Source: Antedon mediterranea
Lineage: Eukaryota > Animalia > Echinodermata
Direction of reading: 5' to 3'
NCBI RefSeq assembly: GCF_964355755.1
Contig: NC_092678.1
Span: 25,933,365-25,997,364 of the forward strand
DNA: 64,000 nt
The position numbers and the translations under genes are program-made. Positions within the stretch are counted from its first letter, which is position 1; every line of letters begins with the position of its first letter. Under the pieces are notes generated by a model. It was not told where the DNA came from, ran no database searches, and was given only the letters and a program-made list of their open reading frames with translations. Below, in pieces: positions 3,039 to 54,566 of this stretch.

Positions 3039-19330
<16,292 letters not shown>

Positions 19331-22201: not shown

Positions 22202-22299
22202 GATTCTCAATTTTCTAATAATCTAGGCCTAGGCCTAGGCTATCAACTTGTCTTGACATATCTATAATATTCAACTTAATTATTGTGAATGTCAAACAG

Positions 22300-29955: not shown

Positions 29956-32900
29956 ATGTTTGGTATTTTCCAAGGCTATCAATTTGCATTTGAGCTTGAC
30001 TACAGTTTCCGTTACAAACAAAAACAAGACCTAAAGAAGAAAATAACAAACAATGGTGGAATAATAACGTACATCCTTACAAAAAAGGTATTTTGAACCA
30101 ACTGCAAAGATTTTATTGATATGCTAGACCCTATTAAGCCGATTTTCAACTAGACGAATTTATTCGCGCAAATAAAAATTGTAAGCTTATACGCAAACAT
30201 GCATGCGTATAACCTGACGCTTTCGATTCACACGAACGATTTCGCATAGTGGAAAATCGGCTTTAATCAATTTTATTTTTGGTACACTGTGTCATGTCAT
30301 ACTTTTTCTAAAACAGGTTTATTTGATTTCAGACCAACTTTTTGATTGTAAGTAATGGAAACCAAGCTGAGTTAACATACAAAGGTAGAACTGCTCAGAA
30401 ACATGATATACCAATAGTCACTGTGGAGTTTATATACCGTTGTGTAAATGAGCAAAAAGTATTGAATTTCACAGATTACCTGGCAACTGATGGTAAGCAA
30501 GTAAAGGAATTTGAAAAAGGAAAAATCAAAAGTAAGTATTTAACCATTTAATTGCCAGAGAGCACCAAACACCAAACATCATCACACACTTGTGTGTTTA
30601 TATTTGAACCTGTGTTCACTACTACTTCTTTCTGAAGAAGAACTATCTACCCAATTAAAAGATATTCTATCATTTCTAGATATACCTATAATCTTTATTA
30701 TTTATTGAAAAGCCATATACTGTACTTATTACATAATTATTCTGTCTATGTATTTAACAGGTAAAACTAAGAGTGCTATAAAGACAAGCAGTTCACTTAA
30801 TGTTAATGCAGTCACGTATGTACTATTATTTATACTTTACAAAAGGAAATTATTTGACACAAATTATTATTTTGTAAATTCAATTTATTGTCAAATACTC
30901 CAAAATGGCGAAGAGATAATAGTTTGGTTTTATTTAGGAGAATTTATTGACTTCTTATGCAAATTAACACTATGTTTTTTGTTATACTCAGTACATATAA
31001 ATAGAGTATTTTATTGACTATTTCTTAAGCTAATTAATACTGTTTTTTTTATTATCAGTACATACAAATAGAGTATTTTATTGACTATTTCTTAAGCAAA
31101 TTAATACTGTATGTTTTGTTTCAGTACATATAAATGGGGTGACAATAAAGCACCAGAGTTTGATGAATTCAATTATGAAGTTGCCAAAAGCTGTCTCCTT
31201 TTGGTAAGTTTTATCTGAACAACTAAAAATCCAAATTAGTCACTGATTCACAGAGAATATCTACAGTCAAAATGTTATTAATTTTTTTTTCAGGGTTCAC
31301 CAAAACCCAAAAAGGGTAGCCTTTTTTACCAGCTTGAACTGCATGTTTTACCAATTACCAACCAGTCTACTATCAAAAAAAGCTTTCGTGTGTTCTGTCA
31401 CCATGGAAACTGCAATGACCTTAAGGTAGGCATACCTACAGTAGGTTTGTTAAGTTACGTACTACTGCCCTCACGTCAGCATTCATGAAGTTAAAAACTG
31501 TGTTATCACTTTATAAATAACCATACACAAAATGTTAATGTTTTTCCTTTGATTTTAATTAGGATGAAAATAGTGGTTCAAAAGAATGTCGGTATTTGCA
31601 GTCTAGCTCTGATGCCCTTAAAATATATGCACACTTATACAACTTGTACAGTGGTCCAGCCCACAATTACAAGAAATCAAACAAGTTTATCTCAAGATGG
31701 ATTGGATCTGATAAACAGAGAAAGGTAGAATTTGATTTGAAAAAAGAATGTAGAAAATTATGTAGTAGAACTATGAAATGTCATAATATTAATTACAATT
31801 AGTTTGAAACAACACAATTTGGAATTCATTAATTTCAATGTTTTTCTTTAGATCTCTATGGAATCCAGTTTTGAATCTGATTCTCTGTCATCAGAAATAG
31901 TTGAGTTGGTAGAGCATATTTGGCAAGAAGCAAATGAAGAACTAAATGAGCTCCTGTCTCTGCCGCAAGCAAGTCTAAAGAAAGAACAGGTACATTTGAT
32001 TCCTTGGCTACATGCCAATTTCATTGTTGGCTGTTTTGCCTTTTAAATATGCACATTGTTTTGGAAGGCAAGAATAGATACTAATGTTGTTGTTATTTAA
32101 TTTATTCAGGTTGAAAAAGCTGAAGCAATACTTCTACAAATAAAGCATGAATTGGATAAAAACCAAAATAGGACAGAGCTTGATAAACTTAGTAAGAGAT
32201 TCTTTGAGCTAATACCTCTTCAGAAAACGTACAGTGTGATTGAAGACAAACTGATGTTAACAAGAGTACATGATATTTGTCAAGTATGTAGAATTTTTTT
32301 ACTTTGTTCTTTGTTAATTATTTCAGCGGTCGTTATGATCTAGATCAAACAAACTGATTTTTTATTGCTTAATTTTATAGCTGATTAAAGATGTAGTGAG
32401 TGTGAGTGAAGCCACTGAATTTTCACCACGTAGCAGTATTCAGGCTAAGGTCCGTGCTCTCAGATGTCACATTCAGCATCTGTCAACTTCATCCCCAGAA
32501 TTTAAAACAATTTTAGACATGGTCAAGGCTAACAATGAAAGGTAAATAAAAGTGACATTTTAGACAAATATGCAATAAATACTAAGTTAAAATTATACAT
32601 AATTTAATATAAACTACAACATTTGTTAAAATTATTTTACAGTAGAAATAAATTTGATGTTAAAAACATTTTTGCTGTTAATCGACCAATCGAGGAGACT
32701 AACTTTGCAAATCATCTTGGAAATAAAAAGCTTTTATTTCATGCATCCAAGCCAGCAAACTTTGTTGGGATATTTACACGGTTTGTATAATAGTTTTGAT
32801 AATTATTTTGTAATAATGTTGACAACATCACACACAATAAAACATGTCTTTCCTATTAAAATAACAAGCATAGTACAGAACCTGATTCTATTCTTTGTTG

Positions 32901-35900
32901 TGTTATTATGTTTATCTTATATTGTTTGAAGGTTTTCATGGCGAAATCAAATGTTGATATAAAGTTTGCAGTACACCACATGTATTAGTTCTGAAAAGAA
33001 TTGTTGAGTCTCTCGACGTGCTTTGATCGTCCTAAGGAGTGAGAATGATTGATCGAAACGTCGAGAAACTCAACAGTTTATTTCAGAACTAATACATGTG
33101 GTGTACCGCAAACTTTATATCAACATATGTTTATCTTATAGTGTTAACTTACATATTTAATTGTGTCAGGTTGTCTTGATGTTAACACTTGTATTTTCAG
33201 AGGCCTTCTTCTGCCAAAAATAGTTGTAGATGATTTTGGTGGAAAAAGAACAGATCCTGGCAACCTGGGATGTGGAATTTATTTTACAGACAGTAGCAGG
33301 TATGCTCTATTATTAGTAACAATGATTGTGAATCTTAGTGTGTTACACTTCTTTTATATTGTATGCAAATTGTATTGTTTTCTATATTTTCAATAAAGAG
33401 ACAAAGACAGTTTTATTATTTATTTCATTTCATTGACCATAAGTATTGATTGCCTGAACTATAATGAAAAAAAGTATAAAAAGTGCTTTAACTACAACAT
33501 ATCTTTGGTTTATTTCTTTAATAGTACAAGTGGAAAGTACTCTTCTCGAGGAAAAGTTAAAGGATCTCGCTTTATGCTAGTAAATGAAGTAGCACTTGGA
33601 AAGTGTCTGGATATGAAGTCTAAAGATTACAAACTGTCATCTGCCCCAAGGGGCTATGATAGTGTGCATGGTGTGAAAACAGCAGTTGGAATAAAGTCGG
33701 ATTTCATGGTATTTTAACACACACTTTCAATAATAACTTTTAGTTGATGTAGATCCTGTATTTGAATCAGAATCTGAGTGGTGATTCCATTGTTTTTTTT
33801 ACACCAAATCCTTGATAGTGATTTTTGGCTCTAGTTAAAACAGCATTTGTTGATGTTTTTTTTTTTTTAAGGATGATGAGTTAGTTGTATACAATACAAA
33901 TCAACAACGCATTCGTTACCTTGTTGAGTTTACACTTCCTGAGGACACCATCAAAGATATTGTTCATATGTCGACGATGAAAGAATCACAGGATAAAGAT
34001 TTAGAAATGATGCATACAGATATCAGTAAGTAGCTATTTTGTTTATATTTAAAAAACACTGATTGAAATCTAGTTTATTAAGCATTATCTGATGAACACT
34101 TAATATTCCTAATGTTTTAGATATTGATGATATTGAATGTATTGTGAATCCATTGGACAAGGTACAAGCTGGTCTGCAGTCTGTGGACAATCATTCTGTC
34201 CCACTAACTGCTGTTCATATCAAAGCAAAGTTGATAGATCTTGCTGCTCAGGTTAGACTCAACAATTAATAGTTAGTTTCCATAACACTGTTCTAGTGAT
34301 CTTGTTGTATAATACATTGTTTCATTAAGTATAGTTGATCATACTTAACAAAATGTATGCTTTATGAACGTGTGCAATGGTACAGCTTGACCCTAACCTT
34401 TTTGTATAAGGTAAAAACTAAGCAAATAATTAATCATACCCAATTTTCACTGATAAATGAATCATTTTATTTACAGGTTGTTGTACTCCAAGCTTATAAG
34501 AATGACAACAACGTTCCAATTGAAGCCAAGTATGTATTCCCTCTGGATGACATGGCAGCAGTGTGTGGCTTTGAGGCTTTCATTGATGGTAAACACATCA
34601 TTGGTGAAGTTAAAGATAAAGAGGTCGCTCATCACGAATACAAAGAGGCCATCAGAAAAGGACATGGGGCTTACTTAATGGATGAGGAAACACCCGTAAG
34701 TAACTTAAGGGGCTTACTTAATGGATGAGGAAACACCCGTAAGTAACTTAAGGGGCTTACTTAATGGATGAGGAAACACCCGTAAGTAACTTAAGGGGCT
34801 TACTTAATGGATGAGGAAACACCCGTAAGTAACTTAAGGGGCTTACTTAATGGATGAGGAAACACCCGTAAGTAACTTAAGGGGCTTACTTAATGGATGA
34901 GGAAACACCCGTAAGTAACTTAAGAGGCTTACTTAATGGATGAGGAAACACCCGTAAGTAACTTCAGAGTTTTAAAACCCGCTTTAATATAACTAATTAC
35001 TAACTACATTGATTAAGAGCTTTGATTGGTTGATATAATAAGAGGTTACCTACATTGATTAAGAGCTTTGATTGGTTGATATAATAAGAGGTTACCTACA
35101 TTGATTAAGAGCTTTGATTGGTTGATATAATAAGGGGAGGTTACCTACATTGATTAAGAGCTTTGATTGGTTGATATAATAAGAGGTTACCTACATTGAT
35201 TAAGAGCTTTGATTGGTTGATATAATAAGAGATTACCTACATTGATTAAGAGCTTTGATTGGTTGATATGTAACATACATTGATTAAGAGCTTTGATTGG
35301 TTGATATAATAAGAGATTACCTACATTGATTAAGAGCTTTGATTGGTTGATATAATAAGAGATTACATACATTGACTAAGAGCTTTGATTGGTTGATTTG
35401 TTTTGTTTTCTAAAGGATGTTTTTACTGTGAGTGTGGGTAACTTGCCTCCAAATTCTGAAGTGTTGATTAAAATCACCTACGTAGCAGAGTTGGCTGTTG
35501 ATTCTAGTAAGATTGTTTTCAATCTTCCCGGCAGTGTAGCACCTTGGAAAAAAAATAGTGCTCTCTCTGTGACAACACAGGAAGAAATGGAAACCATGAA
35601 GATTTCGAGCAAACCAAAAGGGTACACATATTTCACATTTTATTATGCCAATGTTTTATCAATTGAAAATAAAAGGTTGTCACCTAACTAAGCTTTTGAA
35701 AGCATTTGTAATTTAATTTATGAATTTGTATTTTGTAATGTAATTTCCATTGATAGTATTTTAAATGATACAAACAAATTAATTTTCCCCCGCAGAGATA
35801 CATCAGTCCAGGTTGCAATTGAGATGCCTTATGAAATTCGTTCCATTAAGTCTCCAACTCATCCTGTCAAAATGAAGGTAACAACAAATATATAAGTGAA

Positions 35901-38900
35901 TTATTTGTTATTGATCAATAAATATTGACTAGCTTCAGGTATTGATAGATTTTTTTTATTATCTAGCAATCTGCTACCAAGGCTACAGTAGAATTACAGA
36001 AGAATATTTCACTGGGAGATGGTTTTCAACTGTTGATCCAATTAGCAGAAATACATGTACCCAGAATGTGGGTTGAGAGACATCCAGAAAAGGTTGACTC
36101 ACAGGTATGACTTGTTTAAAACAGAAAAGGTTGACTCACAGGTATGACTTGTTTAAAACCAAATGTTTCAATATGTTTTTGATATTCCAGTAGTTTAAAA
36201 AAAAAAATTTAAAACAAATGTATGTACGATATTTTTTTCCCATGACATTTACTTTGTTGTTGTTAATAGGCATGTATGTTGACATTCTATCCTAAGTTTG
36301 AAAGTTAAAATAAATTTAGTTATGATAGTTTTTACATTTGCTGCATTTGTTGTTGTTATTAGGCATGTATGTTGACATTCTATCCTGAGTTTGAAAGTGA
36401 AGATAATGAATCTCCAGAGATTCTATTAGTGCTTGATTTGTCAAACTCAATGAAAGGAGAGAATTTGTTGGAAGCTAAGAAGATTCTTCTTATGACTCTT
36501 CATCATCTTCCATCTAAAGCACTGTTCAACATCATCACATTTGGAACAAGTAAGGCGGAAATTATTATCATCTGTTAAACAAAATAGTAAAATATTTGGC
36601 CAATACAAAACAAATTTGTAATCGATGTACTGATATCTTTGTTTTTTAGATTTTGACGAGTTGTTTCCAGCTAGCCAACCAGTGTCTAATGCTAATCTGT
36701 CTCTTGCTAAAACGTTCATCTTCTGTGTTCAAGCTAATATGGGCAACACAGAAGTATGGCGTCCTCTTCATGCCTACTTTTTGCTTAGTGATGCCAAATG
36801 TCTGCGCAACATCTTTTTGATTTCTGATGGACACATCAATAATGAGGAATCTACTTTAAGAGCAATTCGACTAAATTCAAAAACTAACCGAGTGTTTACT
36901 TTTGGGATAAGGTATATTAGTTTTCAATCCATAAGATGAATTTAGTTTAAATAAAATGTTTTTAACTTATAAAATTCATGAATGGTCATTCAGAAGAGAA
37001 TCATTGTATTCATGTCTTCAACTGTTTCTATTACCTTAGCTCTAGTGGCAACAAACACTTGCTGAGAGCCATCGCCCGTGTCGGAACTGGAGCCTTTGAA
37101 TTCTTTGATACAACTACAAAGTCCAAGTGGGAAAGAAAGGTTAGAGGTTAAATAAAAATAAACAAAATAATTATAATCTGTTTTAGAATGACACTAAATA
37201 ATACAATAATTTTAAAATGATTTTAATAGATCAAAAATCAGTTATTGAAAGCTAGGCAACCAGCATTAAGCAACGTGAGTGTTGAATGGCAACAATTTGA
37301 TGACAACGCCCCCAAACCAATCCAAGCGCCCGGACAAATAACATCGTTATTCAGTGGATCACGGCAAGTAGTGTATGGATACATTCCATTTTGCCAACAG
37401 GTTAGAATCATTCATAATTCACATACAGTTTATTAAACTTACATCAACAATTTAAATATCCAGATTGAGAACATAGTGTCCTTGATTTCTCAGTGCTAAC
37501 AATTTAAATATCCAGATTGAGAATATAGAGTCCTTGGTTACTCAGTGCTAACAATTTAAATATCCAGATTGAGAACATAGTGTCCTTGGTTACTCAGTGC
37601 TAACAATTTAAATATCCAGATTGAGAACATAGTGTCCTTGGTTACTCAGTGCTAACTGGTTTTGTGATATAATTTAATGATTGTGCATTCTTTTCGAAAT
37701 ATTTCTATTTGATAAATATCAAATGTGAAAACAATTTCATCTGGTTTTGATATAAAAAGGAGAAACTGTTTCCGACATTCGTAAGTTTTTCACAGGTTTT
37801 ATGAGCTCTATCTTTTTATTACCATTCCATTAAAGGCAACTTTAAAAGCTGAGGTTGGTGGAGAAGAAATATCAACCATGGTTTCCACTCAGGAACTTAA
37901 TATAACAAAAGGAAAGGTAAGACATTAGTACATTTTATGTTATTAATCTTTAGAAGTATTTCTCAAAATCCTCAATTTTTAATATCAAATTCTATATCAA
38001 TGTTGAAAAAGCAATATCGTTGCATTATGACCAAATTTCATATGGAGATGAATTTATTATAACTTGATTGATTTCCAAATCATACATATTTCTTGATACA
38101 TACAGTAGCAGTTTCCATATCAATAATAACAATTGTATACAAAATGATTAAAAACCTGTAGATACTACACCAACTTACGGCCAGAGCTATTTATATCTAT
38201 GTCAATAATAACAGTTGTATACAAAATGATTAAAAATCTGTAGATACTACACCAACTGACGGCCAGAGCTATTTATATCTATGTCAATAATAACAATTGT
38301 ATACAAAATGATTAAAAACCTGTAGATACTACACCAACTGACGGCCAGAGCTATTTATATCTATGTCAATAATAACAATTGTATATAAAATGATTAAAAA
38401 CCTGTAGATACTACACCAACTGACGGCCAGAGCTATTTATATCTATGTCAATAATAACAATTGTATATAAAATGATTAAAAACCTGTAGATACTACACCA
38501 ACTGACGGCCAGAGCTATTTATATCTATGTCAATAATAACAATTGTATACAAAATGATTAAAAACCTGTAGATACTACACCAACTAACGGCCAGAGCAAT
38601 CATCCGTGACTGGGAAGATGGAACTTTGGATGTTGACCCGGTAGAGCATGACATTAAGAAAGAAGCTCAGAAATCTTACATCATTGATGTCAGTAAAGAG
38701 TATTCTATAGTGACACAATTTACCAGTTTTATCGCCGTAGAAGAACGACATATGGTTTGTATTTATTGGTTAATATTACTTACTTGTTATATAACATGTC
38801 ACCCATATACCTGTACTTCTCTGAGGGTCTGTTTCTGCTGCATAACGCAATTTAACCGGTTATTTTTAAATAGATTAAAAATAGATAACAATAACAAGAC

Positions 38901-41900
38901 CGCGTTTCTGCTCAATTTGTGCTCCGAAATAACCGGTTAAATCTATGGGTGGTCGTCGAGCAAAACGTCATCATTACCCAAAATGCAATACACTCAGACG
39001 GAAGTAGTAAGTTGGCTGTTTGTTTACATCGACGTCGTCAGTACACACGTGTGTATATCGCCGAACATCTCAAACATGTTAAAATAATAAAATGTTGTCT
39101 ACAGATCTACAAGTTTTGTTTTTTGTAAAGCCTACTTACTGATCGCTATTAAAATTAATTCTCATGGCGCCTTCAAAAACATGGGGAGGGTCGTGCAGCG
39201 CCCGATCGCCTAGGATAATTTTTATCTAGCCTAAAATTCATCAACAAAGGCGATGATGATACGGCCCTTACCACGTGAACGACTGTTGTCTTTCGCGAGC
39301 GCGCGGTCCTACAAAAAACCAAACGGAAACAAAAACGAGACTTAGAATGTTGCAATACCTACCAAACGAGAGTAGATAATTGTTAATTAATTATGATTCA
39401 TGAAACCCTAACTTTTATAGCAAAAATCGTCCGAATTTGTGTTAAAAACGACGAGTTTAGCCACAAAAACTTAAATCAAACGAGAGTATCCAAGTCATAG
39501 AATATCGCACGCACATAGTGCCTTTAATAGAATAATGAGTATTAAACATTGTTTCGCATAATATTATGTACTAACATAAATAATAACACATTTCTATGCT
39601 TAATAAAATCATATTTAATATATTATCAAAGGCTCTCATAACCTTTGTTTTCGGTCGATGTGATGTTTTTCTAAAAAAATTTTATAAAACGATCAAATTA
39701 AGATTGTTCATTGTTCTCCTATTAAAGGCACTAAGGGCGTGCCATAAATACGCTCGTTTGGATTAAGTTTTTGTTGCTAAATTCATCGTTTATAACATAA
39801 ATTCGGATGATTTTTGCTATAAAATTTGGGTTTTCATAATCAATTAACCATTATCTACTATCGTTTGGTAGGTATTTGCAACATTTTGAGTCCCTTTTGT
39901 TTCCGTTTTGGTGTTAATATAGGACCATCCATACCCTTCGCGAGCGTGTACTAACGCCTCAAATTGCTTAGCTTGGGTAGTCCCCGGAACTCCACCCCAA
40001 ATTCCTCTTTTACTTTCGCAAAAATGCTCTTATTTATTATCTGTGATTCTTTTCTATTGCCTGCCATCCTTCCCCGTACTTTCTCTCCCTCCACAACTGA
40101 ATAACATATCTTGTGATTTCATTCATCCACATACATGTTCACTTCTTCGTTCGACTGTCAAAACCACGAGGAAAACACACACCGTATGCGACGGTATCTG
40201 ACCCGGGGTCACAACTGTCAATCAAATAACCGTTATTTCGTGTTGCAGCTAAGAATTGCTCAGCGATAACCGGTTAAACGGCGTTCTAACACCGATTTAA
40301 ATTGGTGTTTTTAACCGGTTATTTTGCGCTGCCTTTTAACCGGTTACCACAAATTTGTCCTGTTTCTGCTGCCAAGAAAATGGAGTTAATTTATTCACAC
40401 CGATTTTAATTTATTCACACCGATTTTAACCGGTTATTTTTATGCAGCAGAAACAGGCCCTGAGGTACACGCAGGAGGAAACAATGAGCCAAACAAAACT
40501 TTAGATTGCTTGTTACATAATTTATTGGAATAATTTAGTTAGTGCCACCAGACCATATTGAAGGTTGTCTGCATATAAAGCAGAAGTGTTTGAATTATGT
40601 TTGGTACATAATTTTCTTTAAAAAAGAGTTAAATAATAGTAAGTACTTTTTAAAAATGAATTTATATTGTTCAAAAATACATACAGACTGATTTCCTTGG
40701 AACTGTTTTCAAGCCAAGTATTAATGACCTGGTTGCGAAAGAAGATGTTGATGTTATTCCTTATATTGGCTGGGAAGAAAATTTTGAGCATAGTGTTCAG
40801 AAAAAAGAAGTTGGATGTACAAGTTTGGAAGAAAATAATGAAGATGAATATTCAGTTTCAGAGTCTTATTATTCTGAAGATTTTTTGGTAAGACTAAGTA
40901 CACCCATAAAACACACAATAAGATAAGATAAGGATAAGAGAAAATATAAGAAAATAACTGGGAAAAAATCAAACAATGGAATATATATTAGGAAGATGTA
41001 TAACATCATTGTATTGATCATTTGAAAATGAAATGAATAAAAGTAGTTAACGCCACAAAAGAGAAAAAAAAAAATAGTAAAACACACAATCAAGTGATTC
41101 TAATAACTACTTTAAAACCTTTCTGTCCAATAATTATATGTTGTCTTGAGAGTTGTTCTATTTAGCTTTTACATTAATACTAAATTGTATTTTTAATCTT
41201 TTAGAGTGAATCGGACATGCTTTGCAATTTTGAATATTTAGGTTAGTGAATGATATTGTGTTATATAATTGTGTATAAACAACATTACACCATGTTAAAT
41301 ACTACATGACAGGAACACATAATTTATTATGATTCATGTTAGGGCTTTGACTCCTAACCCTTTTTGTATCTCAAACCATTCTATACTGTATGCCATTCTA
41401 TAATACCAAATTGCCTGATTGTATAGTCTATTATTAAAATATACTGTATGCCATTCTATAATACCAAATTGCCTGATTGTATAGTCTATTATTAAAATAT
41501 ACTGTATGCCATTCTATAATACCAAATTGCCCGATTGTATAGTCTATTATTAAAATATACTGTATGCCATTCTATAATACCAAATTGCCTGATTGTATAG
41601 TCTATTATTAAAATATACTGTATGCCATTCTATAATACCAAATTGCCTGATTGTATAGTCTATTATTAAAATATACTGTATGCCATTCTATAGTACCAAA
41701 TTGCCTGATTGTATAGTCTATTATTAAAATATACTGTATGCCATTCTATAATACCAAATTGCCTGATTGTATAGTCTATTATTAAAATATACTGTATGCC
41801 ATTCTATAATACCAAATTGCCTGATTGTATAGTCTATTATTAAAATATACTGTATACCATTCTATAATACCAAATTGCCTGATTGTATAGTCTATTATTA

Positions 41901-44900
41901 AAATATACTGTATGCCATTCTATAGTACCAAATTGCCTGATTGTATAGTCTATTATTAAAATATACTGTATGCCATTCTATAATACCAAATTGTCTGATT
42001 GTATAGTCTATTATTAAAATATACTGTATACCATTCTATAATACCAAATTGCCTGATTGTATAGTCTATTATTAAAATATACTGTATGCCATTCTATAGT
42101 ACCAAATTGCCTGATTGTATAGTCTATTATTAAAATATACTGTATGCCATTCTATAATACCAAATTGCCTGATTGTATAGTCTATTATTAAAATATACTG
42201 TATGCCATTCTATAATACCAAATTGCCTGATTGTATAGTCTATTATTAAAATATACTGTATGCCATTCTATGATACCAAATTGCCTGATTGTATAGTCTA
42301 TTATTAAAATATACTGTATGCCATTCTATAATACCAAATTGCCTGATTGTATAGTCTATTATTAAAATATACTGTATGCCATTCTATGATACCAAATTGC
42401 CTGATTGTATAGTCTATTATTAAAATATACTGTATGCCATTCTATAATACCAAATTGCCCGATTGTATAGTCTATTATTAAAATATACTGTATGCCATTC
42501 TATAATACCAAATTGCCTGATTGTATAGTCTATTATTAAAATATACTGTATGCCATTCTATAATACCAAATTGCCTGATTGTATAGTCTATTATTAAAAT
42601 ATACTGTATGCCATTCTATAATACCAAATTGCCTGATTGTATAGTCTATTATTAAAATATACTGTATGTCATTCTATAATACCAAATTGCCTGATTGTAT
42701 AGTCTATTATTAAAATATACTGTATGCCATTCTATAATACCAAATTGCCTGATTGTATAGTCTATTATTAAAATATACTGTATGCCATTCTATAATACCA
42801 AATTGCCTGATTGTATAGTCTATTATTAAAATATACTGTATGTCATTCTATAATACCAAATTGCCTGATTGTATAGTCTATTATTAAAATATACTGTATG
42901 CCATTCTATAATACCAAATTGCCTGATTGTATAGTCTATTATTAAAATATACTGTATGCCATTCTATGATACCAAATTGCCTGATTGTATAGTCTATTAT
43001 TAAAATATACTGTATGTCATTCTATAATACCAAATTGCCTGATTGTATAGTCTATTATTAAAATATACTGTATGCCATTCTATGATACCAAATTGCCTGA
43101 TTGTATAGTCTATTATTAAAATATACTGTATGCCATTCTATAATACCAAATTGCCCGATTGTATAGTCTATTATTAAAATATACTGTATGCCATTCTATA
43201 ATACCAAATTGCCTGATTGTATAGTCTATTATTAAAATATACTGTATGCCATTCTATAATACCAAATTGCCTGATTGTATAGTCTATTATTAAAATATAC
43301 TGTATGCCATTCTATGATACCAAATTGCCTGATTGTATAGTCTATTATTAAAATATACTGTATGCCATTCTATAATACCAAATTGCCCGATTGTATAGTC
43401 TATTATTAAAATATACTGTATGCCATTCTATAATACCAAATTGCCTGATTGTATAGTCTATTATTAAAATATACTGTATGCCATTCTATAATACCAAATT
43501 GCCTGATTGTATAGTCTATTATTAAAATATACTGTATGCCATTCTATGATACCAAATTGCCTGATTGTATAGTCTATTATTAAAATATACTGTATGCCAT
43601 TCTATAATACCAAATTGCCCGATTGTATAGTCTATTATTAAAATATACTGTATGCCATTCTATAATACCAAATTGCCTGATTGTATAGTCTATTATTAAA
43701 ATATACTGTATGCCATTCTATAATACCAAATTGCCTGATTGTATAGTCTATTATTAAAATATACTGTATGCCATTCTATAATACCAAATTGCCTGATTGT
43801 ATAGTCTATTATTAAAATATACTGTATGCCATTCTATAATACCAAATTGCCTGATTGTATAGTCTATTATTAAAATATACTGTATGTCATTCTATAATAC
43901 CAAATTGCCTGATTGTATAGTCTATTATTAAAATATACTCTATGCCATTCTATAATACCAAATTGCCTGATTGTATAGTCTATTATTAAAATATACTGTA
44001 TGTCATTCTATAATACCAAATTGCCTGATTGTATAGTCTATTATTAAAATATACTGTATGTCATTCTATAATACCAAATTGCCTGATTGTATAGTCTATT
44101 ATTAAAATATACTGTATGCCATTCTATAATACCAAATTGCCTGATTGTATAGTCTATTATTAAAATATACTCTATGCCATTCTATAATACCAAATTGCCT
44201 GATTGTATAGTCTATTATTAAAATATACTGTATGCCATTCTATAATACCAAATTGCCTGATTGTATAGTCTATTATTAAAATATACTGTATGCCATTCTA
44301 TAATACCAAATTGCCTGATTGTATAGTCTATTATTAAAATATACTGTATGTCATTCTATAATACCAAATTGCCTGATTGTATAGTCTATTATTAAAATAT
44401 ACTCTATGTCATTCTATAATACCAAATTGCCTATGTAATTTTTATTAATTAAATTGCTGGTTCTTTTACAGATTATGAAGTTGGCGACTCATTTGAATCA
44501 GAATGTAAGTGAATGGTTTGCTATTACAGTACAGCTTGTAGATCAGTTAAGACCCTTTCTCACAGACGTGCCTGCAATATACCGGTATGATGCTGGCGTC
44601 GTGCCGGTATCGTTACCGGCATATACCTATTCTCATTACGGCATGGTAATGGTACATTCCCGCAACATTTCTGGCACACAGCTCTGTGAGAATGGGGCTT
44701 TATAGGAATATATAGTCTCTAGTGTGATGTCCTGTTAAGTAATTATTTTGTTTTTTCTGTAATTTTTATTAATTAAATTGCTGGTTCTTTTACAGATTAT
44801 GAAGTTAACGACTCATTTGAATCAGAATGTAAGTGAATGTTTTGCTATTACAGTACAGCTATTTGAATGTAAGTGAATGACTTGCTATTACAGTACAGCT

Positions 44901-47900
44901 ATTTGAATGTAAGTGAATGTTTTGCTATTACAGTACAGGTATTTGAATGTAAGTGAATGTTTTGCTATTACAGTACAGCTATTTGAATGTAAGTGAATGT
45001 TTTGCTATTACAGTACAAGTATTTGAATGTAAGTGAATGTTTTGCTATTACAGTACAGCTATTTGAATGTAAGTGAATGTTTTCCTATTACAGTACAGCT
45101 ATTTGAATGTAAGTGAATGTTTTGCTATTACAGTACAGGTATTTGAATGTAAGTGAATGTTTTGCTATTACAGTACAGGTATTTGAATGTAAGTGAATGT
45201 TTTGCTATTACAGTACAGGTATTTGAATGTAAGTGAATGTTTTGCTATTACAGTACAGGTATTTGAATGTAAGTGAATGTTTTGCTATTACAGTACAGGT
45301 ATTTGAATGTAAGTGAATGTTTTGCTATTACAGTACAGGTATTTGAATGTAAGTGAATGTTTTGCTATTACAGTACAGGTATTTGAATGTAAGTGAATGT
45401 TTTGCTATTACAGTACAGCTATTTGAATGTAAGTGAATGTTTTGCTATTACAGTACAGGTATTTGAATGTAAGTGAATGTTTTGCTATTACAGTACAGGT
45501 ATTTGAATGTAAGTGAATGTTTTGCTATTACAGTACAGGTATTTGAATGTAAGTAAATGTTTTCCTATTACAGTACAGGTATTTGAATGTAAGTGAATGT
45601 TGTGCTATTACAGTACAGCTATTTGAATGTAAGTGAATGTTTTGCTATTACAGTACAGGTATTTGAATGTAAGTAAATGTTTTCCTATTACAGTACAGGT
45701 ATTTGAATGTAAGTGAATGTTTTGCTATTACAGTACAGGTATTTGAATGTAAGTGAATGTTGTGCTATTACAGTACAGGTATTTGAATGTAAGTGAATGT
45801 TTTGCTATTACAGTACAGGTATTTGAATGTAAGTGAATGTTTTGCTATTACAGTACAGTAAATATATGAAGGTCAGATACATGATGACTTGCACCATACA
45901 CCGGACTTGTAGGACTATATCCCGGACTTGTAGCACTATATCCCGGACTTGTAGCACTATATCCTGGAATTGTAAACCCTAACCCTATTTATTTATTTAT
46001 TTACTGAAAAATTAAATCCTAAAAATAAACATGTTAGGAGATTCAATCTTGTATTCTCAATACCTATTTATCCGGATGATAAAAGAAATGATTTTGCATT
46101 TTTTGTTTTTATTTATATATTTGGTTGCGTTTACTGTACAACTCCAGAATTTTGTCTTACAGTTCAAGAAAAATATAGTGCTACAATTCCAGGATATAGT
46201 GCTACAAGTCCGGGATATAGTGTTACAAGTCCGGGATATAGTGTTACAAGTCCGGGATATAGTCCTACAAGTCCGGGATATAGTCCTACAAGTCCGGGAT
46301 ATAGTCCTACAAGCCCGAGATATAGTCTTACAAGCCCGAGATATAGTCTTACAAGCCCGAGATATAGTCCTACAAGTCCGGTGTATGGTGCAAGTCATCC
46401 TGTATCTAGCCATACAGGTACGAAATTCCTATTGTATTGGGATGCAAATTTACAATATTACTACTATAACAATATCAACTTATGAAATCATTATGAATCT
46501 ATGATAAATAATATATTAAATTAGATATCAGTCAAAATAAATAAATATATTGTATTTTTGCTTTTGTTGTTTATCATTATAAAGTGTGAAAGTCGTTTAG
46601 AGTAAACTTTGAAATTATAAAATATTCACTATGTGTGATAAACCGTAATCATCAGTGAGATTTTGTAATCATTATCACCACTACATTTAAAAAATATTCA
46701 TAATAAAATATTCACATTGTGCTAAAATAAACATTCTGTACCAGCTCAAATAATAATTATGTTTTACTGGCACAGATATGCCTATTGTAATGGACTCCGG
46801 TTCATTTTCAATTAAAGCTGGAATGGCTGGAAACACTTTCCCGTCCAGGGAACTACCAAGTGTTGTAGGTCGTCCTCGTCACCAAGGTGTCATGGTTGGC
46901 ATGGGTCAAAAAGGTGCATATGTTGGGACAGAAGCTGTTGGAGGCTCCTCACATCTATGTAAGTATAGAAAATGGTCTGAATCAACATTTTTAAATCTCA
47001 TCTTTTTGTTTGTTTGTTGAGAATTGTCAAAATCAACATTTTTAATTCTTATCTTTTTGTCTGTTGAGAATTGTCTGAATCAACATTTTTAATTTTCATC
47101 TTTTTGTCTGTGTGTTGAGAATTGTCTGAATTCAAATTATATCAATATGATTGATAATTTAAAACAAATTATATATTACAATTTCTTTTCTTTAGTTCGT
47201 AAAATAGAAAAAAAAAAAAGAAATTCAGATCAGCCAACCTTCTCTTATGTCTCTATGGGTACTTCTCCTCGTCCTTTACGTCTACCACCTCCACCTCAAC
47301 CTAAACCAAAGCTAGATACGTTTGTTGGATGGATGGATAATGATGAAGATGATGATGATGATTATGATGATATGGGTTTTGGGGATCCATGTCCACCTAA
47401 ACCAAAGCCAGGTATGTTTGGTGCAAGACATTTAAAAAAAATATTATTATAGATTTCAAGATGCTCTAATTTATTAACAAATAAAAATGTTTAAAATATA
47501 AAGATGAGTATACATATAGATATTACAAACCAAATCTCTACAGATTACTGTATTTCAAATTTGTGAATTATGTTTAATTTAAAGCAGTACCTGCCATCTG
47601 TTTTATTTAACACTGAATTTATTGTAATCAAATCTAGCATTGTATATTGTGGCAGGAGTTTTTTAGTTTTAGATAGTTTAATTTTGTAGACTTTGTGCAA
47701 GTTAAAAAGTGGCACGCTTTCAAAGTGCTTGTTGACATAAAACATATTCCTCATGTAATACAGTATTACATTTTGCAGGCCCACAGCAAATGCAACAACA
47801 GCAAATGCTTGGTAAGACAACACGACAATCAGCTGAACAGACGACTGATAGATTACCGGCAGTAGAACGTTCATTGACCTTAGGTACTTTTGATTATTAC

Positions 47901-50900
47901 TTAAAGATTATTATTAATGACAAGCTATTCTTACAAATTGCACCATGTATTTCATAAAATCTCATTAAATTCATTCCCACCACCACACCATTCATTTGGT
48001 AGTCGTCGTAAGTTAGTGTTTTCCCTCAATATACATCATTTTAAATTTTAAATCCACCACCACTATCATCACGAGGTGCATCTGTATCACCTTCTGCTTC
48101 ACTTCTGTCAAAACTTTGTCCACCACCACCTCCACCAAAGCCACCAGCATCTGTATCAATTCCTCTAGGTACAATTGTTGGATCGATGGATAATGATGTT
48201 GAAATGGGTTTTGGTGGTCCATGTCCACCTAAACCAAAACCAGGTATGTTTGGGGCAATTTTTTTTTATGTTATATCACAGGGTTCAATATTTTAAAAAA
48301 GATTTTAAGATGCTCTAGTTTAGTAACAAATAAAAATGTTTAAAATATAAAGATGAGTATACATATGGATATTACAAACCAAGTCTCTACAGATTGCTGT
48401 ATTTCAAATTTAAAGCAGTACCTGCCATCTGTTTTATTCAACAATGAATTTATTGTTATCAAATGTAGTATTGCATATTGTGGCAGGAGGTTTTAGTTTT
48501 AGTTTTGTAGACTTTTTGTGCAAGTTAAAAAGTGGCACGCCTTGAAAGTGCTTGTTGACATAAAAAACATTCCTCATTTAATACAGTATTACATTTTGCA
48601 GACTCACGATCAGTTCCGCTTATAATGCTTGGTAAGACAACACAACAATCATCTGAACAGACGACTGATAGATTACCTGCAGTAGAACGTTATAGAACGC
48701 AAAAATGTATTACCTTAAGATCTGGTGCATCTATACAAAGCCCCTCTATGGGTATGGCTCCACCTGCAGCTGCTGCTGTTGAACGGTCACCACCTTTAGT
48801 AAAATCAGGTACGTTTGTTATTTATCTATACAAAGTCTCTCTATGGGTATGGCTCCACCTGCAGCTGCTGCTGTTGTACAGTCACCACCTTTAGCAAAAT
48901 CAGGTGCGTTTGTTATTTATCTATACAAAGTCTCTCTATGGGTATGGCTCCACCTGCAGCTGCTGCTGTTGTACGGTCACCACCTTTAGCAAAATCAGGT
49001 ACGTTTGTTATTTATCTATACAAAGTCTCTCTATGGGTATGGCTCCACCTGCAGCTGCTGCTGTTGTACGGTCACCACCTTTAGCAAAATCAGGTGAGTT
49101 TGTTATTTATCTATACAAAGTCTCTCTATGGGTATGACTCCACCTGCAGGAGCTGCTGCTGTTGTACGGTCACCACGTTTAGCAAAATCAGGTGAGTTTG
49201 TTATTTATCTATACAAAGTCTCTCTATGGGTATGGCTCCACCTGCAGCTGCTGCTGTTGTACGGTCACCACTTTTAGAAAAATCAGGTGCGTTTGTTATT
49301 TTTACTTGAACACAGATTTGTCTTTGTAGCTTTGTAGTGCTGTGCACATAAATCGCTGTGACATTATTATGGTAGTTGATTGATTATTCAATCCAGTGTT
49401 TCTCTCTTCTTTTTTTTTCAGAAGACTTGTTAATGACCAATAGGGAACAAAATGTAACGAAAATGTTAACAATGAAAACTCGTGGACTTTCACCACCAAC
49501 AAACTCTAGTGCTTCAGATCCATCACTTCCTCGTCTTTCAAAACAATATCGTGTACCACCTCCACCTCCACCTAAACCAAAGCTAGATACGTTTGTTTTA
49601 ATGGATAATGATGAAGATTACGATGAAGATGATGATTACGATTATAATGCTATGGGTTTTGGTGATCCATGTCCACCTAAACCAAAGCCAGGTATGTTTG
49701 GTGCAAGACATTTTATTTATTTTTTTATATTATATCACAGGGTCCGATATTTTAAAAAAAGATTTCAAAATTCTCTAATTTATTAACAAATAAAAATGTT
49801 TAAAATATAAAGATGAGTATACATATAGATATTACAAACCAAATCTCTACAGATTACTGTATTTCAAATTTGTGAATTATGTTTAATTTAAAGCAGTACC
49901 TGCCATCTGTTTTATTTAACACTGAATTTATTGTAATCAAATCTAGCATTGTATATTGTGGCAGGAGTTTTTTAGTTTTAGATAGTTTAATTTTGTAGAC
50001 TTTGTGCAAGTTAAAAAGTGGCATGCTTTCAAAGTGCTTGTTGACATAAAACATATTCCTCATGTAATACAGTATTACATTTTGCAGGCCCACAGCAAAT
50101 GCAACAACAGCAAATGCTTGGTAAGACAACACAACAATCAGCTGAACAGACAACTGATAGATTACCGGCAGTAGAACGTTCATTGACCTTAGGTACTTTT
50201 GATTATTACTTAAAGATTATTATTAATGACAAGCTATTCTTACAAATTGCACCATGTATTTCATAAAACTCTCATTAAATTCATTCCCACCACACCATTC
50301 ATTTGGTAGTCGTCGTAAGTTAGTGTTTTCCCTCAATATACATCATTTTAAATTAGTAAACAATTATTGCTTTATATGATAGGTGACATGCGTAGGAAGC
50401 GTGAAAGACGTGAAACAGATGCATATAAAGAAGAAATATCCGACGCAATCTCCCTTCATCGATGTAAGTATTTAGAGAATTTTCAGATTAAAAAATGTTG
50501 GTATGGTTAAATTTATACTATTCTACTATTCTATGTATGTGTATGTGGGTGAATGTATGTAGAGAATGAATCCTGTTAGTCTTTTGTTAGAGTTTGATGC
50601 AAATGATTTTGAGGTAAGTATCAAACACTACTATCTGCTTTGATTGTAGCTTCGCAAGCAAAGAGAAAACAGCGTGAACATTTTCAAAAAATTATTATTA
50701 TACTCAATATACATTATTTTAAATTAGTGATCAATTATTGCTTTACATGCTAGGTGACATGCGTAGGGAACGTGATACGTGTAGGCAACTTGATACGCGT
50801 AGGGAACGTGATACAGATGCATATGAAGGTGAATGTAGATCTCGTACATTTCGACAAAAGCGCTGTATGGATATGGCTCCAACTTCAGCTGCTGCTGTTG

Positions 50901-53900
50901 TACGGTCATCACCTTTAGCAAAATCAGGTGAGTTTGTTATTTATTTATACAAAATCTCTCTTTGAGTATGGCTCCACCTTCAGCTGCTGCTGTTTTACAA
51001 TCACCACCTTTAGCAAAATCAGGTGAGTTTGTTATTTATGGGTATGGCTCCACTTGCAGCTGCTGCTGTTGTACGGTCACCACCTTTAGCTAAATCAGGT
51101 GAGTTTGTTATTTATCTAGACAAAGTCTCTCTATGGGTATGGCTCCACCTGCAGCTGCTGCTGTTGAACAGTCACGGCCTTTAGCAAAATCAGGTGAGTT
51201 TGTTATTTATTTATACAAAATCTCTCTTTGAGTATGGCTCCACCTTCAACTGCTGCTGTTTTACGATCACCACCTTTAGCAAAATCAGGTGAGTTTGTTA
51301 TTTATCTAGACAAAGTCTCTCTATGGGTATGGCTCCACCTGCAGCTGCTGCTGTTGTACGGTCACCACCTTTAGCAAAATCAGGTGAGTTTGTTATTTAT
51401 CTAGACAAAGTCTCTCTATGGGTATGGCTCCACCTGCAGCTGCTGCTGTTGTACGGTCACCACCTTTAGCAAAATCAGGTGGGTTTGTTATTTATCTATA
51501 CAAAGTCTCTCTATGGGTATGGCTCCACCTGCAGCTGCTGCTGTTGAACAGTCACCACCGTTAGCCAGATCAGGTATTTTTGTTATTTTTACTGAAGAAC
51601 ACAGATTTGTCTTTGTAGCTTTGTAGTGATGTGCAAATAAATCGCTGTGACATTATTATGGTAGTTGATTGATTATTTAATCCAGTGTTTCTTTCTTTTT
51701 TTTTTTAGAAAACTTGTTAATGACAAAAATAACATATAAGACAAGAAACAGAGAAAGGAAAAGAAATTCATCCATCCATGGTGTGTTTATGCATCTCACA
51801 TTACTTCATTTACCACATATTTTGAAGAATAGTTTTTTGTTACTGTTTACTCATTATATATTTTATGTTACACTTTTAATAAAATGATTTTTCTGGTACA
51901 GTGAAATTGAAAACAATAAAAATGTATTAAACATTAGTTTAATCATGGACCTATTCTAATTTATATGTCCATGGTTCAATAGTGAAGACTTACTAACAGA
52001 GCTTCAAAAAAAATTCTAGCAAATAAGGCAATGTTTTCAAAATTCAAAGCAGAGAATACTCAACTATGGACATTTGGTGCACCTACTTTCAATATATCAA
52101 TATCTATTCTGGTTTTCATCCAATTATTGTTTCACTGAAATATTTTGTCACATTTGTCGTTTAGAAAGTATGGAACCGAGGAAGAGTGGAGTGCGTGTAT
52201 TTGGATTGAACAGAACAGATCTATTGTCGTACTACAAAAGTAAGTCTTTTCACTGTTTCTGTAAACCTTAACTCAGTATAATAACAATTTAAATGGTTTA
52301 TAAAAAAATGAATTTGTGGATAAAAATAACAAACATAATACACTTAAATGCTGGTAGCAAATGTATGAGAGTTTAGTTTCTAACTTGACTCTAAATCAAC
52401 CAAACAATGTATGATTCTTCAGATACCATATTTTGTATATAGTAATAAACATTTTATCTTATTTTTAAAAATGTTAGAAGATGAGCCAAACCTAGCTTTT
52501 GTATTTGAATCACTAAAAGAAGCCATTAATGCACAAGACAAAGTAAGAAACAAATTAATGATTATATAATATTGTGATTATTCAATGTTGACTCACTAAA
52601 GGAAGCCATTAATGCACAAGACAAAGTAAGAAACAAATTAATGATTATATATTATTGTGATTATTCAATGTTGACTCACTAAAGGAAGCCATTAATGCAC
52701 AAGACAAAGTAAGAAACAAATTAATGATTATATAATATTGTGATTATTCATGATGTGATTGTGATTATTCATGATGTCATAATCTATGATATCCGTCATT
52801 ATTGTGTTCAGTGTGTTGTTATTATTATTTGTTTATATGTAACATATTTTTGATTTGTAATCATCATGATTACATTTATTAACCGAAGTTTATTCACATT
52901 TTTATATTAAAGGCTTCTGGTTCCTGGTCGAGATTGTCTATTAAAGAGCTGATCAAACTTGATGCTGTCATCAATGATCAGTTAAAAGAAATTTCACAAA
53001 AAGATGGTAAATATAGAATTCATTATCATTTCCCAGTTGTTCTTAAGATCCAGTGTATGAATCAATCTTATGTACAGCAGTAGTTGTATGTCTGCTAGAG
53101 TGTGTACTTCAATCCTGTTCACTCCTTTTTTCAGATTCAGTGTATGAATCAATCTTATGTACAGCAGTAGTTGTATGTCTGCTAGAGTGTGTACTTCAAT
53201 CCTGTTCACTCCTTTTTTCAGATACAGTGTATGAATCAATCTTATGTACAGCAGTAGTTGTATGTCTGCTAGAGTGTGTACTTCAAAATTGGAAACAGTT
53301 TACAATAATAATTGACAGAGAAATAACAGAAGAGTATCATAATGCAATAACCAGTCTTTGGAATGCAGAGTTCTTTCTTCAGTCAGTGGTGCAGCCCAGT
53401 GAACATTACAATGTGAAAGAACCAACCTGGATTGAATATGCTGAAAAGCACTTGCTTGAGACTCCTCAGATAGGTAAGTCATCCTCATCAACGTTAGCAA
53501 CTTTATTTGTTTGTGATTGATCTTACACTTTGTTAAATAGTAGCTTACAATAATTTAACAGTGAGTAATGGTAATTTTAAAAGGTAGTGTTAGGTTGTAG
53601 ATTGATGTTGATAAGTTCTCCTTTCAGGCTTACATGATAAAACATCTATATTCATTGATTCTGAAGGTTTGATGTGCCTGGAAGGCCGATTAACAGGAAT
53701 GTTAAAAACAGGTTATGGAATAACTGTGAGTAAATGTATCTTCTTTGTTAATGTAAATCTTTGTATCTTTTGACGTGTTTTTTCAATATCGTATTTTTTG
53801 ATGTTTTTTATAATTTTAAGAGCTTTGTCTGTGTACAATCTTTAAATTTTAAATATTATATATATTTCACAATAAATGCTGTGCAAGCAGCGCATTCATG

Positions 53901-54566
53901 TATTATAGGTGACTGTGAGTATGTAGGTTACTGAGTAATGTATTATTAAACTGATATAGTGGTTAATCCTACAGACATCCACAACTGGTTCAGATGAATT
54001 ATATTATTTCAAGAAATTAATTGTTTGTTTTAAAGCATACATTCTGGAGATTATCAGCTTGTTTTGCAGTACTCTTTGCTATTGATCGTAGATATGTTTC
54101 ACAACTTTTCAACCAAGCTGGACTCCGGTCTCTGGGTATGTGCTGTAGTATACATGTTTATTAGTACTACTGTCTCATAGTTTTGTGCTGAATTTAATGA
54201 TTCTATTATTTACTGAGAAAGGTTGGGTTCTTAACAGTCTGAGAAATAAAGTAATTGCTGTGTGTTTTTTTAATAGGAGTCAAACGTCAACAAGCAGTAT
54301 ATTCCATGTTTACCATGGCTGTTGGCATCAAGTTATTAACTAATGCTGCAAAGGATACCACCTCTTTCACCAAATCTGGAGAAATGGATGCATATTATAA
54401 TTTGAAACATCTATTGGCCGAGTTGGAAACTTCCCTAAATGATAAAGAAAGGAGTTACTTAGGACTTGCCAGAAATCTAGACATGGGCAGCAATTGGCGC
54501 AATGTAGCTTCAAAATTATGCAGATTTGAACAAGATGAAGATGGAGCCGGCTGTAATTGGTTGTAA
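29956..54566 (+). CDS. PARP4: Protein mono-ADP-ribosyltransferase PARP4 / vault PARP (BRCT, regulatory, ART, VIT, vWA, variable linker, C-terminal MVP-interacting region), more than 40 exons
   Basis: BRCT-like start [16 protein letters not shown]...ITNNGG (29956-30087). Catalytic LLFHASK...RGLLLPK...[13 protein letters not shown]...KYS...DDELVVY (about 32643-34025). VIT QAYKN...[33 protein letters not shown] (34477-34695) and [12 protein letters not shown]. v[11 protein letters not shown]...[24 protein letters not shown]...[15 protein letters not shown] (38572-38754); [16 protein letters not shown] (40687-40887). C-terminal FWRLS...GLRSLGVK (54036-54135, 54278 onward) and LDMGSNW...TAA at 54566. 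Exons in the 41-53 kb linker are less certain. Confidence 0.93.
30136..30264. mobile_element. Small Harbinger/Tourist-like MITE
   Basis: AAGCCGATTTTCAACTA ... TAGTGGAAAATCGGCTT inverted ends in a TA/TAA-rich context. Confidence 0.6.
32922..33126. mobile_element. Palindromic insertion, probably an inverted Penelope-like pseudo-LTR fragment
   Basis: Near-perfect hairpin 32951-33126 with GATCGAAACGTCGAG near the centre; flanked by the 15-bp direct repeat TATGTTTATCTTATA (32907-32921, 33126-33140). Confidence 0.6.
34666..34963. repeat. 43-bp tandem repeat of a PARP4 exon end plus donor, about 7 copies
   Basis: Unit ggggcttacttaatggatgaggaaacaccc|gtaagtaacttaa; the first copy encodes [10 protein letters not shown]. 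Confidence 0.95.
35005..35397. repeat. About 46-bp minisatellite, about 8 copies
   Basis: Unit tacattgattaagagctttgattggttgatataataagaggttacc. Confidence 0.9.
37447..37656. repeat. 52-bp tandem repeat, 4 copies
   Basis: Unit aacaatttaaatatccagattgagaacatagtgtccttggttactcagtgct. Confidence 0.9.
38118..38597. repeat. 82-bp tandem repeat of a PARP4 acceptor plus exon start, 6 copies
   Basis: ...aaaacctgtag|atactacaccaactgacggccagagc with period 82 (38161, 38243, 38325...); only the last copy continues into the coding exon. Confidence 0.93.
38825..40460. mobile_element. PIF/Harbinger-like non-autonomous element with a nested long-TIR element (about 39305-39927)
   Basis: TIR GGG(T/C)CTGTTTCTGCTGCATAA, 3-bp TSD TGA in a C-TGA-G target, repeated TAACCGGTTA subterminal motifs. 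Inside it, about 230-bp inverted arms at 39305-39530 and 39715-39927. Confidence 0.8.
41383..44432. repeat. 58-bp intronic minisatellite, about 52 copies
   Basis: Unit atactgtatgccattctataataccaaattgcctgattgtatagtctattattaaaat; period 58. Confidence 0.97.
44550..44699. mobile_element. 150-bp Tourist/Harbinger-like MITE
   Basis: TIRs AGACCCTTTCTCACAGA / TCTGTGAGAATGGGGCT; TTA on both flanks (44547-44549, 44700-44702). Confidence 0.75.
44825..45859. repeat. 40-bp minisatellite seeded at a PARP4 donor, about 26 copies
   Basis: Unit gaat|gtaagtgaatgttttgctattacagtacaggtattt, starting at the end of the 33-nt exon 44796-44828. Confidence 0.95.
45871..46411. mobile_element. TIR element with 21-bp subterminal repeats and internal (AACCCT)2; its right arm overlaps a putative PARP4 exon
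   Basis: Left end GGTCAGATACATGATGACTTGCACCATACACCGGACTTGTAGGACTATAT matches the reverse complement of the right end GGCTAGATACAGGATGACTTGCACCATACACCGGACTTGTAGGACTATAT; about 4 repeats on the left, about 10 on the right. Confidence 0.75.
46163..46417 (+). CDS. Putative PARP4 cassette exon encoding RNA polymerase II CTD-like heptads
   Basis: tttgtcttacag|...|gtacga, 255 nt, phase 1-1, no stop codon: [84 protein letters not shown]. This frame is not in the ORF track. Confidence 0.65.
46776..46958 (+). CDS. Putative PARP4 cassette exon encoding an actin N-terminal fragment
   Basis: ggcacag|AT ATG CCT...CAT CTA T|gtaagt, 183 nt, phase 1-1: [53 protein letters not shown] versus actin [51 protein letters not shown]. 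Confidence 0.8.
47280..50355 (+). repeat. Intragenic segmental duplications in the PARP4 linker (about 47280-48045 and 49550-50355 near-identical; 48100-48700 a diverged third copy)
   Basis: Shared intron sequence and repeated exons [16 protein letters not shown]...[12 protein letters not shown] and [15 protein letters not shown]...; twin spurious ORFs 47545-47874 and 49854-50183. Confidence 0.9.
48729..49300. repeat. 95-bp repeat of a PARP4 exon end plus donor, about 6 copies
   Basis: ...atgggtatggctccacctgcagctgctgctgttgtacggtcaccacctttagcaaaatcag|gt...; the first copy ends exon 48602-48808. Confidence 0.9.
50865..51585. repeat. Second array of the same 95-bp exon-end/donor repeat, about 8 copies
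   Basis: Same unit as 48729-49300; the first copy ends exon 50754-50926. Confidence 0.9.
53047..53287 (+). repeat. 87-bp in-frame triplication of a PARP4 acceptor plus exon start
   Basis: ag|at(c/t/a)cagtgtatgaatcaatcttatgtacagcag... at 53047, 53134 and 53221; ORF 53053-53520 reads through all three. Confidence 0.9.

Follow-up and report, generated by a model that had tools for sequence, protein, structure and literature searches.

RNA polymerase II CTD-like heptads in a spliced exon of the variable PARP4 linker of Antedon mediterranea

Introduction

The functions of the vault and of PARP4 are long-standing open questions. In mammals, recurrent positive selection within PARP4 has been reported for exon 30 alone, and the authors of that study proposed that this exon recognises pathogen factors (PMC4038475). 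PARP4-like proteins to which a 14-3-3, actin or ubiquitin domain is appended were reported in Perina 2014, where these domains were read as pathway links; in the accessible part of that text RNA polymerase, Rpb1, heptad, CTD and decoy are nowhere named (PMC4245714). Two further systems are of relevance here. In ITIH4, according to the available part of PMC7793589, residues 633-713 constitute a bait, and cleavage yields a MIDAS-dependent trap. The Ser5-phosphorylated CTD, for its part, is directly bound by a viral polymerase, as stated in the available part of PMC4907247.

Here we analyse the PARP4 gene contained in a 64-kb stretch of DNA of the crinoid Antedon mediterranea (the window), the variable linker of which includes an exon made up of heptads like those of the RNA polymerase II (Pol II) CTD.

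Results and discussion

The window is AT-rich and rich in tandem arrays, with 61 rows in the repeat search. Its PARP4 gene spans positions 29956 to 54566, and the BRCT, PARP, VIT and vWA exons score in Pfam; the succession of BRCT, PARP catalytic, VIT and vWA domains, in this order, identifies the product as a PARP4. A public model, P0210, a PARP4-like protein of A. mediterranea of 2138 aa, can be aligned over the full length of the gene, in most parts with 95-100% identity within exons, and starts with the BRCT domain at residue 3. The catalytic H-Y-E residues are found in it at 443, 482 and 552, and the vWA MIDAS at 886, 954 and 981, in both cases as motif matches only. No polymerase family domain and no NB-ARC/NACHT or LRR scaffold was detected in P0210 by Pfam.

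The core exons (29956..41241, + strand) encode the BRCT, PARP regulatory and catalytic, VIT and vWA domains and a post-vWA domain. They are followed by the variable linker (44472..52239, +), in which 12 exons were mapped under the guidance of P0210, and by C-terminal exons (52478..54566, +) in which a profile search indicated a putative, divergent MINT-like (vault-docking) domain. The latter was matched with iE 2e-5 by a vertebrate-only profile and with 4e-18 by a mixed profile that contains a close relative, and PF26156 does not figure on the P0210 record. All 12 linker exons are of phase 1-1, as against none of the 25 mapped core exons (two core exons were left out), and some of them are copies of one another. 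The addition, removal or duplication of exons of this phase leaves the reading frame intact.

Several other features of the window were recorded. Several tandem arrays extend across a PARP4 exon boundary and contain many copies of a donor or acceptor site (34666-34964, 36085-36159, 38120-38597, 44825-45858, 52505-52750 and 53046-53286); in the 40-bp array at 44825-45858, a donor-like site is repeated about 26 times. Two 95-bp arrays (48729-49301 and 51037-51588) consist of units that close with a donor-like site and code for a short peptide rich in Ala and Pro, and may represent further optional linker exons. An intronic element at 38821-40464 has 25-bp terminal inverted repeats and encloses a nested inverted-repeat element at 39354-39876; both are likely to be non-autonomous transposons. 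The neighbouring genes encode a DUSP-UBL-UCH deubiquitinase (3989-8436), a PLD-like protein (21371-22222, - strand) and a member of the Bax-inhibitor-1 family (27364-27639). The PLD-like gene is apparently single-exon, and we take it to be of the zucchini/PLD6 type. Long arrays with 121-bp and 21-bp units and open frames are located at 59765-61696 and 62548-63262, near two ORFs without Pfam match.

The heptad exon (46163..46417, +; 255 nt) is preceded by AG and followed by GT, and is of phase 1 at both ends. The tandem-repeat search of the window found in it a 21-bp array of 10.0 copies at 46173-46381, which in the frame of the exon reads as ten heptads in tandem (46174-46383) with the pattern Y-S-x-T-S-P-x. 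The frame, which a first-pass annotation of the sequence had described as absent from the ORF list, corresponds to an ORF at 45976-46485 in a stop-to-stop scan. That annotation had counted about ten CTD-like heptads, with Y1, S2, T4 and P6 in all ten and S5 in nine, and the translation of the exon gives exactly these counts. Position 3 is P in four units and A, V and L in two each, while position 7 is G in six, R in three and V in one; four of the ten units read YSPTSPx, P3 is lost in the other six, and none is an exact YSPTSPS. With PF05001 the exon scores 73.7 bits (cut-off 20.3), which places the array among tandem heptads of the YSPTSPS type. No match at or above 0.9 was obtained in the ESM Atlas.

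Splicing was assessed in the assembled contigs of one run from a single study (X1), a probable RNA run, taken as such because GT..AG joints are seen in it and not in the other runs compared; its coverage is mainly exonic. Five runs were considered, all without an annotation as RNA, and four of these, X1 included, were compared. A GT..AG joint from 46417 to 46776 is present in X1 at a depth of 202 and absent from three other runs compared, these three corresponding to one sample. Further GT..AG joints of X1, 47411/47779 and 40887/41205, were found in none of the other runs compared. On the upstream side, a 353-letter X1 contig (depth 223.1) covers 40687-40887, 41205-41241, 44472-44504 and the start of the exon at 46163; the acceptor joint at 46163 was pieced together from the loose ends of contigs in two alignments, which we took as one contig. 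At 40686, another loose end of X1 has the sequence with which the conserved core exon at 38754 ends. In these contigs the heptad exon is thus spliced in frame, with the PARP4 core on its upstream side and an exon encoding an actin fragment on its downstream side. Neither skipping of the heptad exon nor an A-to-G change in it was found in the X1 contigs, from which rare forms are lost.

These data bear out the overall reading of the first-pass annotation, that of a spliced, in-frame PARP4 exon with CTD-like heptads, an acceptor, a donor and a phase matching both neighbours: X1 contigs support both the 46163 and the 46417 end, so that the splicing on which that reading depended is present. Other parts of it need correction. 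The exon had been called hidden, and yet P0210, the model of a near-identical allele, already includes it, with seven heptads. The upstream neighbour had been placed at 44796, whereas the exon used in the transcript, directly upstream of the heptad exon, is a 33-nt exon of phase 1-1 at 44472..44504 (+), as deduced from the X1 loose end and the P0210 mapping; the one at 44796..44828 (+), which precedes the 40-bp array, is a duplicate of it used neither in X1 nor in P0210. It had also been missed that the next exon encodes an actin fragment, and that the heptads share this region of invertebrate PARP4 with many other pieces of host proteins.

The actin-fragment exon (46776..46958, +; phase 1-1), which is spliced in X1, corresponds to an N-terminal part of actin (profile positions 6-53 of 410) that includes the D-loop region. 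It scores 32.2 bits with Pfam Actin (cut-off 27), and matches PDB actins with an E value of 1e-16. The linker holds as well proline-rich and acidic repeats, two of them with a degenerate ending like that of the ribosomal stalk, a motif-based likeness that is weak in the Antedon gene.

The linker varies between alleles. The number of heptads is ten in the window and seven in P0210, and X1 enters the heptad array directly at a P3 unit. In the actin exon, comparison by hand of X1 with the window gave five differing sites, three of them silent and none in the D-loop core. The X1 exon that follows the actin fragment (46958 onward) has a start that differs clearly from that of the 47196 exon of the window, and suggests that the linker is strongly divergent between alleles.

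Conservation within the array had been put forward as proof of selection, and does not hold as such. The ten units are near-identical as DNA, with only 8 of the 21 sites variable among them, and the array is, judging from its sequence, a recent expansion, so that conservation within it carries little weight. The six amino-acid changes cluster at positions 3 and 7 with p=0.004, but p rises to 0.16 when clustering at any two positions is considered, and a change at 46294 in X1, read by hand, alters one P6. The bias within the array would be a weak sign of selection. The evidence that counts is recurrence across species rather than conservation within the array.

To this end, a homologue set was used that included the best 120 of 1042, and 125 proteins were labelled by genus. 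After dropping three without the anchor motif and 29 with fewer than 300 residues after the anchor, 86 invertebrate proteins (53 labels, two without genus name) and seven vertebrate proteins were kept; the vertebrate-type set comprised 14 proteins, i.e. these seven and seven further vertebrate-type ones, with ten times less sequence. Most homologues are predicted gene models, the transcript check covering the heptad and actin pieces of Antedon. The search of PARP4 orthologues for YSPTSP, which had been advised in the first-pass annotation, found this hexamer after the core in 22 of the 86 proteins and 16 of the 53 genus labels among the homologues listed, namely six of molluscs, five of echinoderms, three of sponges, one of an annelid and one of amphioxus. 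It was found nowhere in the 102,235 residues of the cores of the same proteins, and in none of the 14 vertebrate-type linkers, on ten times less sequence. Residue shuffles gave at most two labels in 300, dipeptide-preserving shuffles a mean of 1.2 and at most four in 100, and 172 unrelated anagrams at most one; the next commonest word of the form xSPzSP occurs in two genera, compared with 16 for YSPTSP. True arrays of exact YSPTSPS are found, for instance, in Sycon, Dreissena and Strongylocentrotus, and in another crinoid genus, Anneissia, a single unit is located at the corresponding point of the linker (76 vs 68 residues into it). The order of the CTD and actin pieces differs between lineages. 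As far as can be read from these sequences, the recurrence of YSPTSP after the PARP4 core is a statistically strong pattern, and CTD-like repeats outside RPB1 that recur in five animal phyla would come as a surprise to transcription specialists.

Pieces of other host proteins were sought by means of motifs picked after the data had been seen. Among the 53 labels, the actin D-loop was found in 19, the ubiquitin end in 11, the ribosomal-stalk tail in 10, the histone H3 tail in five and 14-3-3 in four, with at most two in the shuffle controls. At least one sought motif was present in 36 labels, at least two in 18 and none in 17, and no sought motif was found in the 14 vertebrate-type linkers. These counts are lower bounds, since the calmodulin motif was found in 0 of 53 labels despite Pfam EF-hands in four genera. 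Poly-proline, frequent in both groups (35 of 53 invertebrate labels and 6 of 14 vertebrate-type linkers), was excluded from the pieces.

Precomputed Pfam annotations rendered extra domains in 42 of 69 non-vertebrate labels among the homologues listed: actin in 23, ubiquitin in 20, 14-3-3 in six, Hsp70 in six, synaptobrevin in five, EF-hand in four and Snf7 in two. When 18 invertebrate proteins hand-picked for such extras were scanned, 17 carried foreign families, all at residues 1252 to 2368, after the core, and three vertebrate proteins carried none in the same scan. Most pieces are truncated, such as actin (5-53/76 of 410), 14-3-3 (125-223 of 223), Hsp70 (380-528 of 599) and synaptobrevin (3-62 of 89), and cannot be working proteins. 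In the actin pieces of 20 genera, conservation is 0.93 in the D-loop region and 0.66 in the preceding 28 columns, a difference that is partly built in, 5 of the 21 D-loop columns being the anchor; in true actins, there is almost no variation in either stretch. Which pieces are present, and in what order, varies between lineages and paralogues. By these motif and domain matches, CTD, actin, ubiquitin, 14-3-3, Hsp70, SNARE, EF-hand, Snf7 and ribosomal-stalk pieces recur at one place across invertebrate phyla.

That such pieces are a general trait of VIT-vWA linkers was not upheld, since among 120 non-PARP VIT-vWA proteins, mostly metagenomic, the only one with a piece was the query itself. Further extras were noticed in the PARP4 models P0159, P0219, P0226 and P0249 (nuclear-receptor-type C4 zinc finger, PDZ, WH2 and PF01394). 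Of two Anaeramoeba VIT-vWA proteins without PARP (P0126 and P0287), one has an actin the N-terminal piece of which is placed after the rest, and the other has an N-terminal Ras-family domain.

From the splicing, the cassette structure, the allelic variation and the recurrence at one place, all of which were observed, we infer a lure. In this proposal, which we hold to be evenly balanced between true and false, the heptads, which a spliced exon adds to the variable linker, are one of several copies made from exposed parts of core host proteins, and these would act, by analogy with other systems, as pathogen bait. A protein of a virus or microbe that targets the Pol II tail, actin or ubiquitin would attach to, or cleave, the linker copy rather than the original, and would in this way come close to the vWA and catalytic domains of PARP4, to be held, ADP-ribosylated or shut in the vault. 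Given a host kinase that modifies them, the heptads would mimic the Ser5-phosphorylated tail, since Ser5-Pro6 is kept in nine of the ten units. The other donor proteins of linker pieces are frequent targets of pathogens. More tentatively, and by the same analogy, invertebrate PARP4 could be seen as an intracellular trap with multiple baits, whose engagement would lead to capture or ADP-ribosylation in the vault; its exon-shuffled linker would then offer copies of the surfaces that pathogens attack most in the host, namely those of the Pol II tail, actin D-loop, ubiquitin, 14-3-3, Hsp70, SNAREs, ESCRT-III, calmodulin-like domains, ribosomal stalk and histone tail.

Several points weigh against a role as bait. 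The function is proposed on the basis of pattern and analogy, and actin, ubiquitin, Hsp70 and calmodulin have abundant transcripts and are likely donors of fragments even without pathogens. The motifs are found in 0 of 14 vertebrate-type linkers, though exon 30 is the selected part in vertebrates, 17 of the 53 labels are motif-free, six of the ten heptads lack P3, and selection within the array is not evident from the clustering of changes. Moreover, the pieces are also surfaces bound by host partners, so that the same pattern fits docking of host proteins. The heptads would in that case recruit CTD kinases, phosphatases or factors of RNA processing, and the other pieces would draw in the binders of actin, ubiquitin and SNAREs, as cargo or substrates of PARP4 and the vault. 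Recurrence and conservation fit this equally well, and according to the respective reports, human cells that have lost PARP4 show an altered vault interactome (PMC12280208), PARP4 is found in part in the nucleus (PMC7916137) and the actin and ubiquitin add-ons were taken as pathway links (PMC4245714). We consider docking rather unlikely all the same, because the set and order of the pieces vary by lineage and paralogue, and the number of repeats by allele, which would be odd for a fixed housekeeping link, and because the region corresponds to the exon described as positively selected in the accessible part of PMC4038475.

It could also be the case that the linker is a tolerant disordered spacer, in which pieces of abundant transcripts accumulate and minisatellites expand; the heptads would then be a Ser/Pro-rich phospho-tether without mimicry, and some of the fusions would be errors in gene models. 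A window packed with tandem arrays (61 rows), units near-identical at the DNA level after a recent expansion and a weak bias within the array are what would be expected of it. This explanation is nevertheless improbable in our judgement, as one exact hexamer leads the xSPzSP words by 16 to 2, a single segment of actin has been retained in groups that range from sponges to echinoderms, best in the D-loop region, and the heptad and actin pieces are both spliced in Antedon.

An inverted copy of the 3' part of the heptad exon, of about 3.5 units, lies in the upstream intron (45875..45974, - strand; 100 nt, 87% complementary to 46308-46407), with a spacer of 333 nt between the two arms, which within the window match only one another. 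In the predicted fold, copy and exon would pair over about 100 bases of the pre-mRNA and enclose the acceptor site; the z-score of this hairpin (-18.9) merely restates the inverted repeat, and an effect on splicing or editing is possible. Contig depth over the copy is a few times the local baseline, depth being no gauge of copy number. The earlier framing of this repeat as a transposon is not supported, and we read the copy as a local inverted duplication of the 3' part of the exon. An exonised small inverted-repeat transposon (45875-46407), with the array as its terminal repeat and the heptads as a coincidence, would account for the 100-nt inverted repeat around a 333-nt spacer, but is very improbable, given that no target-site duplication was seen by eye at the ends of the repeat, that Anneissia has YSPTSP at the same linker position (76 vs 68) and that YSPTSP recurs in 15 other genera. 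Neutral capture and transposon coincidence both fit the data poorly.

If the linker is indeed an array of baits, each piece would name a host target attacked by the pathogens of that lineage, and the positive selection on the matching human exon would be explained. Even under host docking, the pieces would constitute a ready list of candidate vault cargo.

Comparison with known systems

The heptads of Antedon share with the RPB1 CTD (PF05001) their tandem, in-register arrangement with Y1, S2, T4, S5 and P6. They differ in that they are internal, on a PARP, and limited to ten units, none of them exact and six of the ten without P3, in a protein without polymerase domains; they are spliced into PARP4 and do not form the C-terminal tail of the largest subunit of Pol II.

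With ITIH4, as described in the available part of PMC7793589, the Antedon protein has in common a VIT-vWA core with a MIDAS motif and a variable region directly after it, which in ITIH4 holds the bait. The core profile ends at residue 1223 of human PARP4 and at residue 608 of ITIH4, and profile positions 885-1205 match ITIH4 272-608. On the other hand, ITIH4 is a plasma protein with a generic cleavable stretch as bait, according to the same text, whereas PARP4 is intracellular, has an ADP-ribosyltransferase domain and carries in its linker copies of specific host proteins; P0210 has a BRCT domain at residue 3, which does not suggest a secreted plasma protein.

The integrated domains of plant NLRs, in the available part of PMC4759884, are likewise host-protein copies carried on a single scaffold, which differ by lineage and in some cases recur, and the linker pieces conform to this description as fused, lineage-varied copies of host proteins. 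Here, unlike in plant NLRs, there is no NB-ARC or LRR, the scaffold is a vault enzyme, many pieces are found per chain and effector binding is putative. Were the multiple-bait reading correct, PARP4 would be an animal counterpart of the plant integrated decoys on an unrelated scaffold, and the vault would gain a function.

Human PARP4 (PDB 11jf, 9bw6; PMC12280208, PMC4038475) shows the same order of BRCT, PARP, VIT, vWA, variable linker and an end that in Antedon is putatively MINT-like, and the Antedon linker corresponds in position to its fast-evolving exon 30. The Antedon linker consists, in contrast, of 12 phase 1-1 exons with Pol II CTD and actin pieces, the motifs of which are found in 0 of 14 vertebrate-type linkers. 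The PARP4-like proteins of Perina 2014, from amoebae, unicellular holozoans, amphioxus and sea urchin, carry three of the same types of add-on in the accessible part of that study (PMC4245714); compared with these, the add-ons found here are mostly truncated, of many more types, and several occur together in one linker. No paper joining PARP4 and YSPTSPS, and none with a bait-array reading, was found in the main texts of the open-access literature. The gene, a public model that includes the exon, and the 14-3-3, actin and ubiquitin add-ons were already known, while the heptads and the wider array of pieces in invertebrate PARP4 are apparently undescribed.
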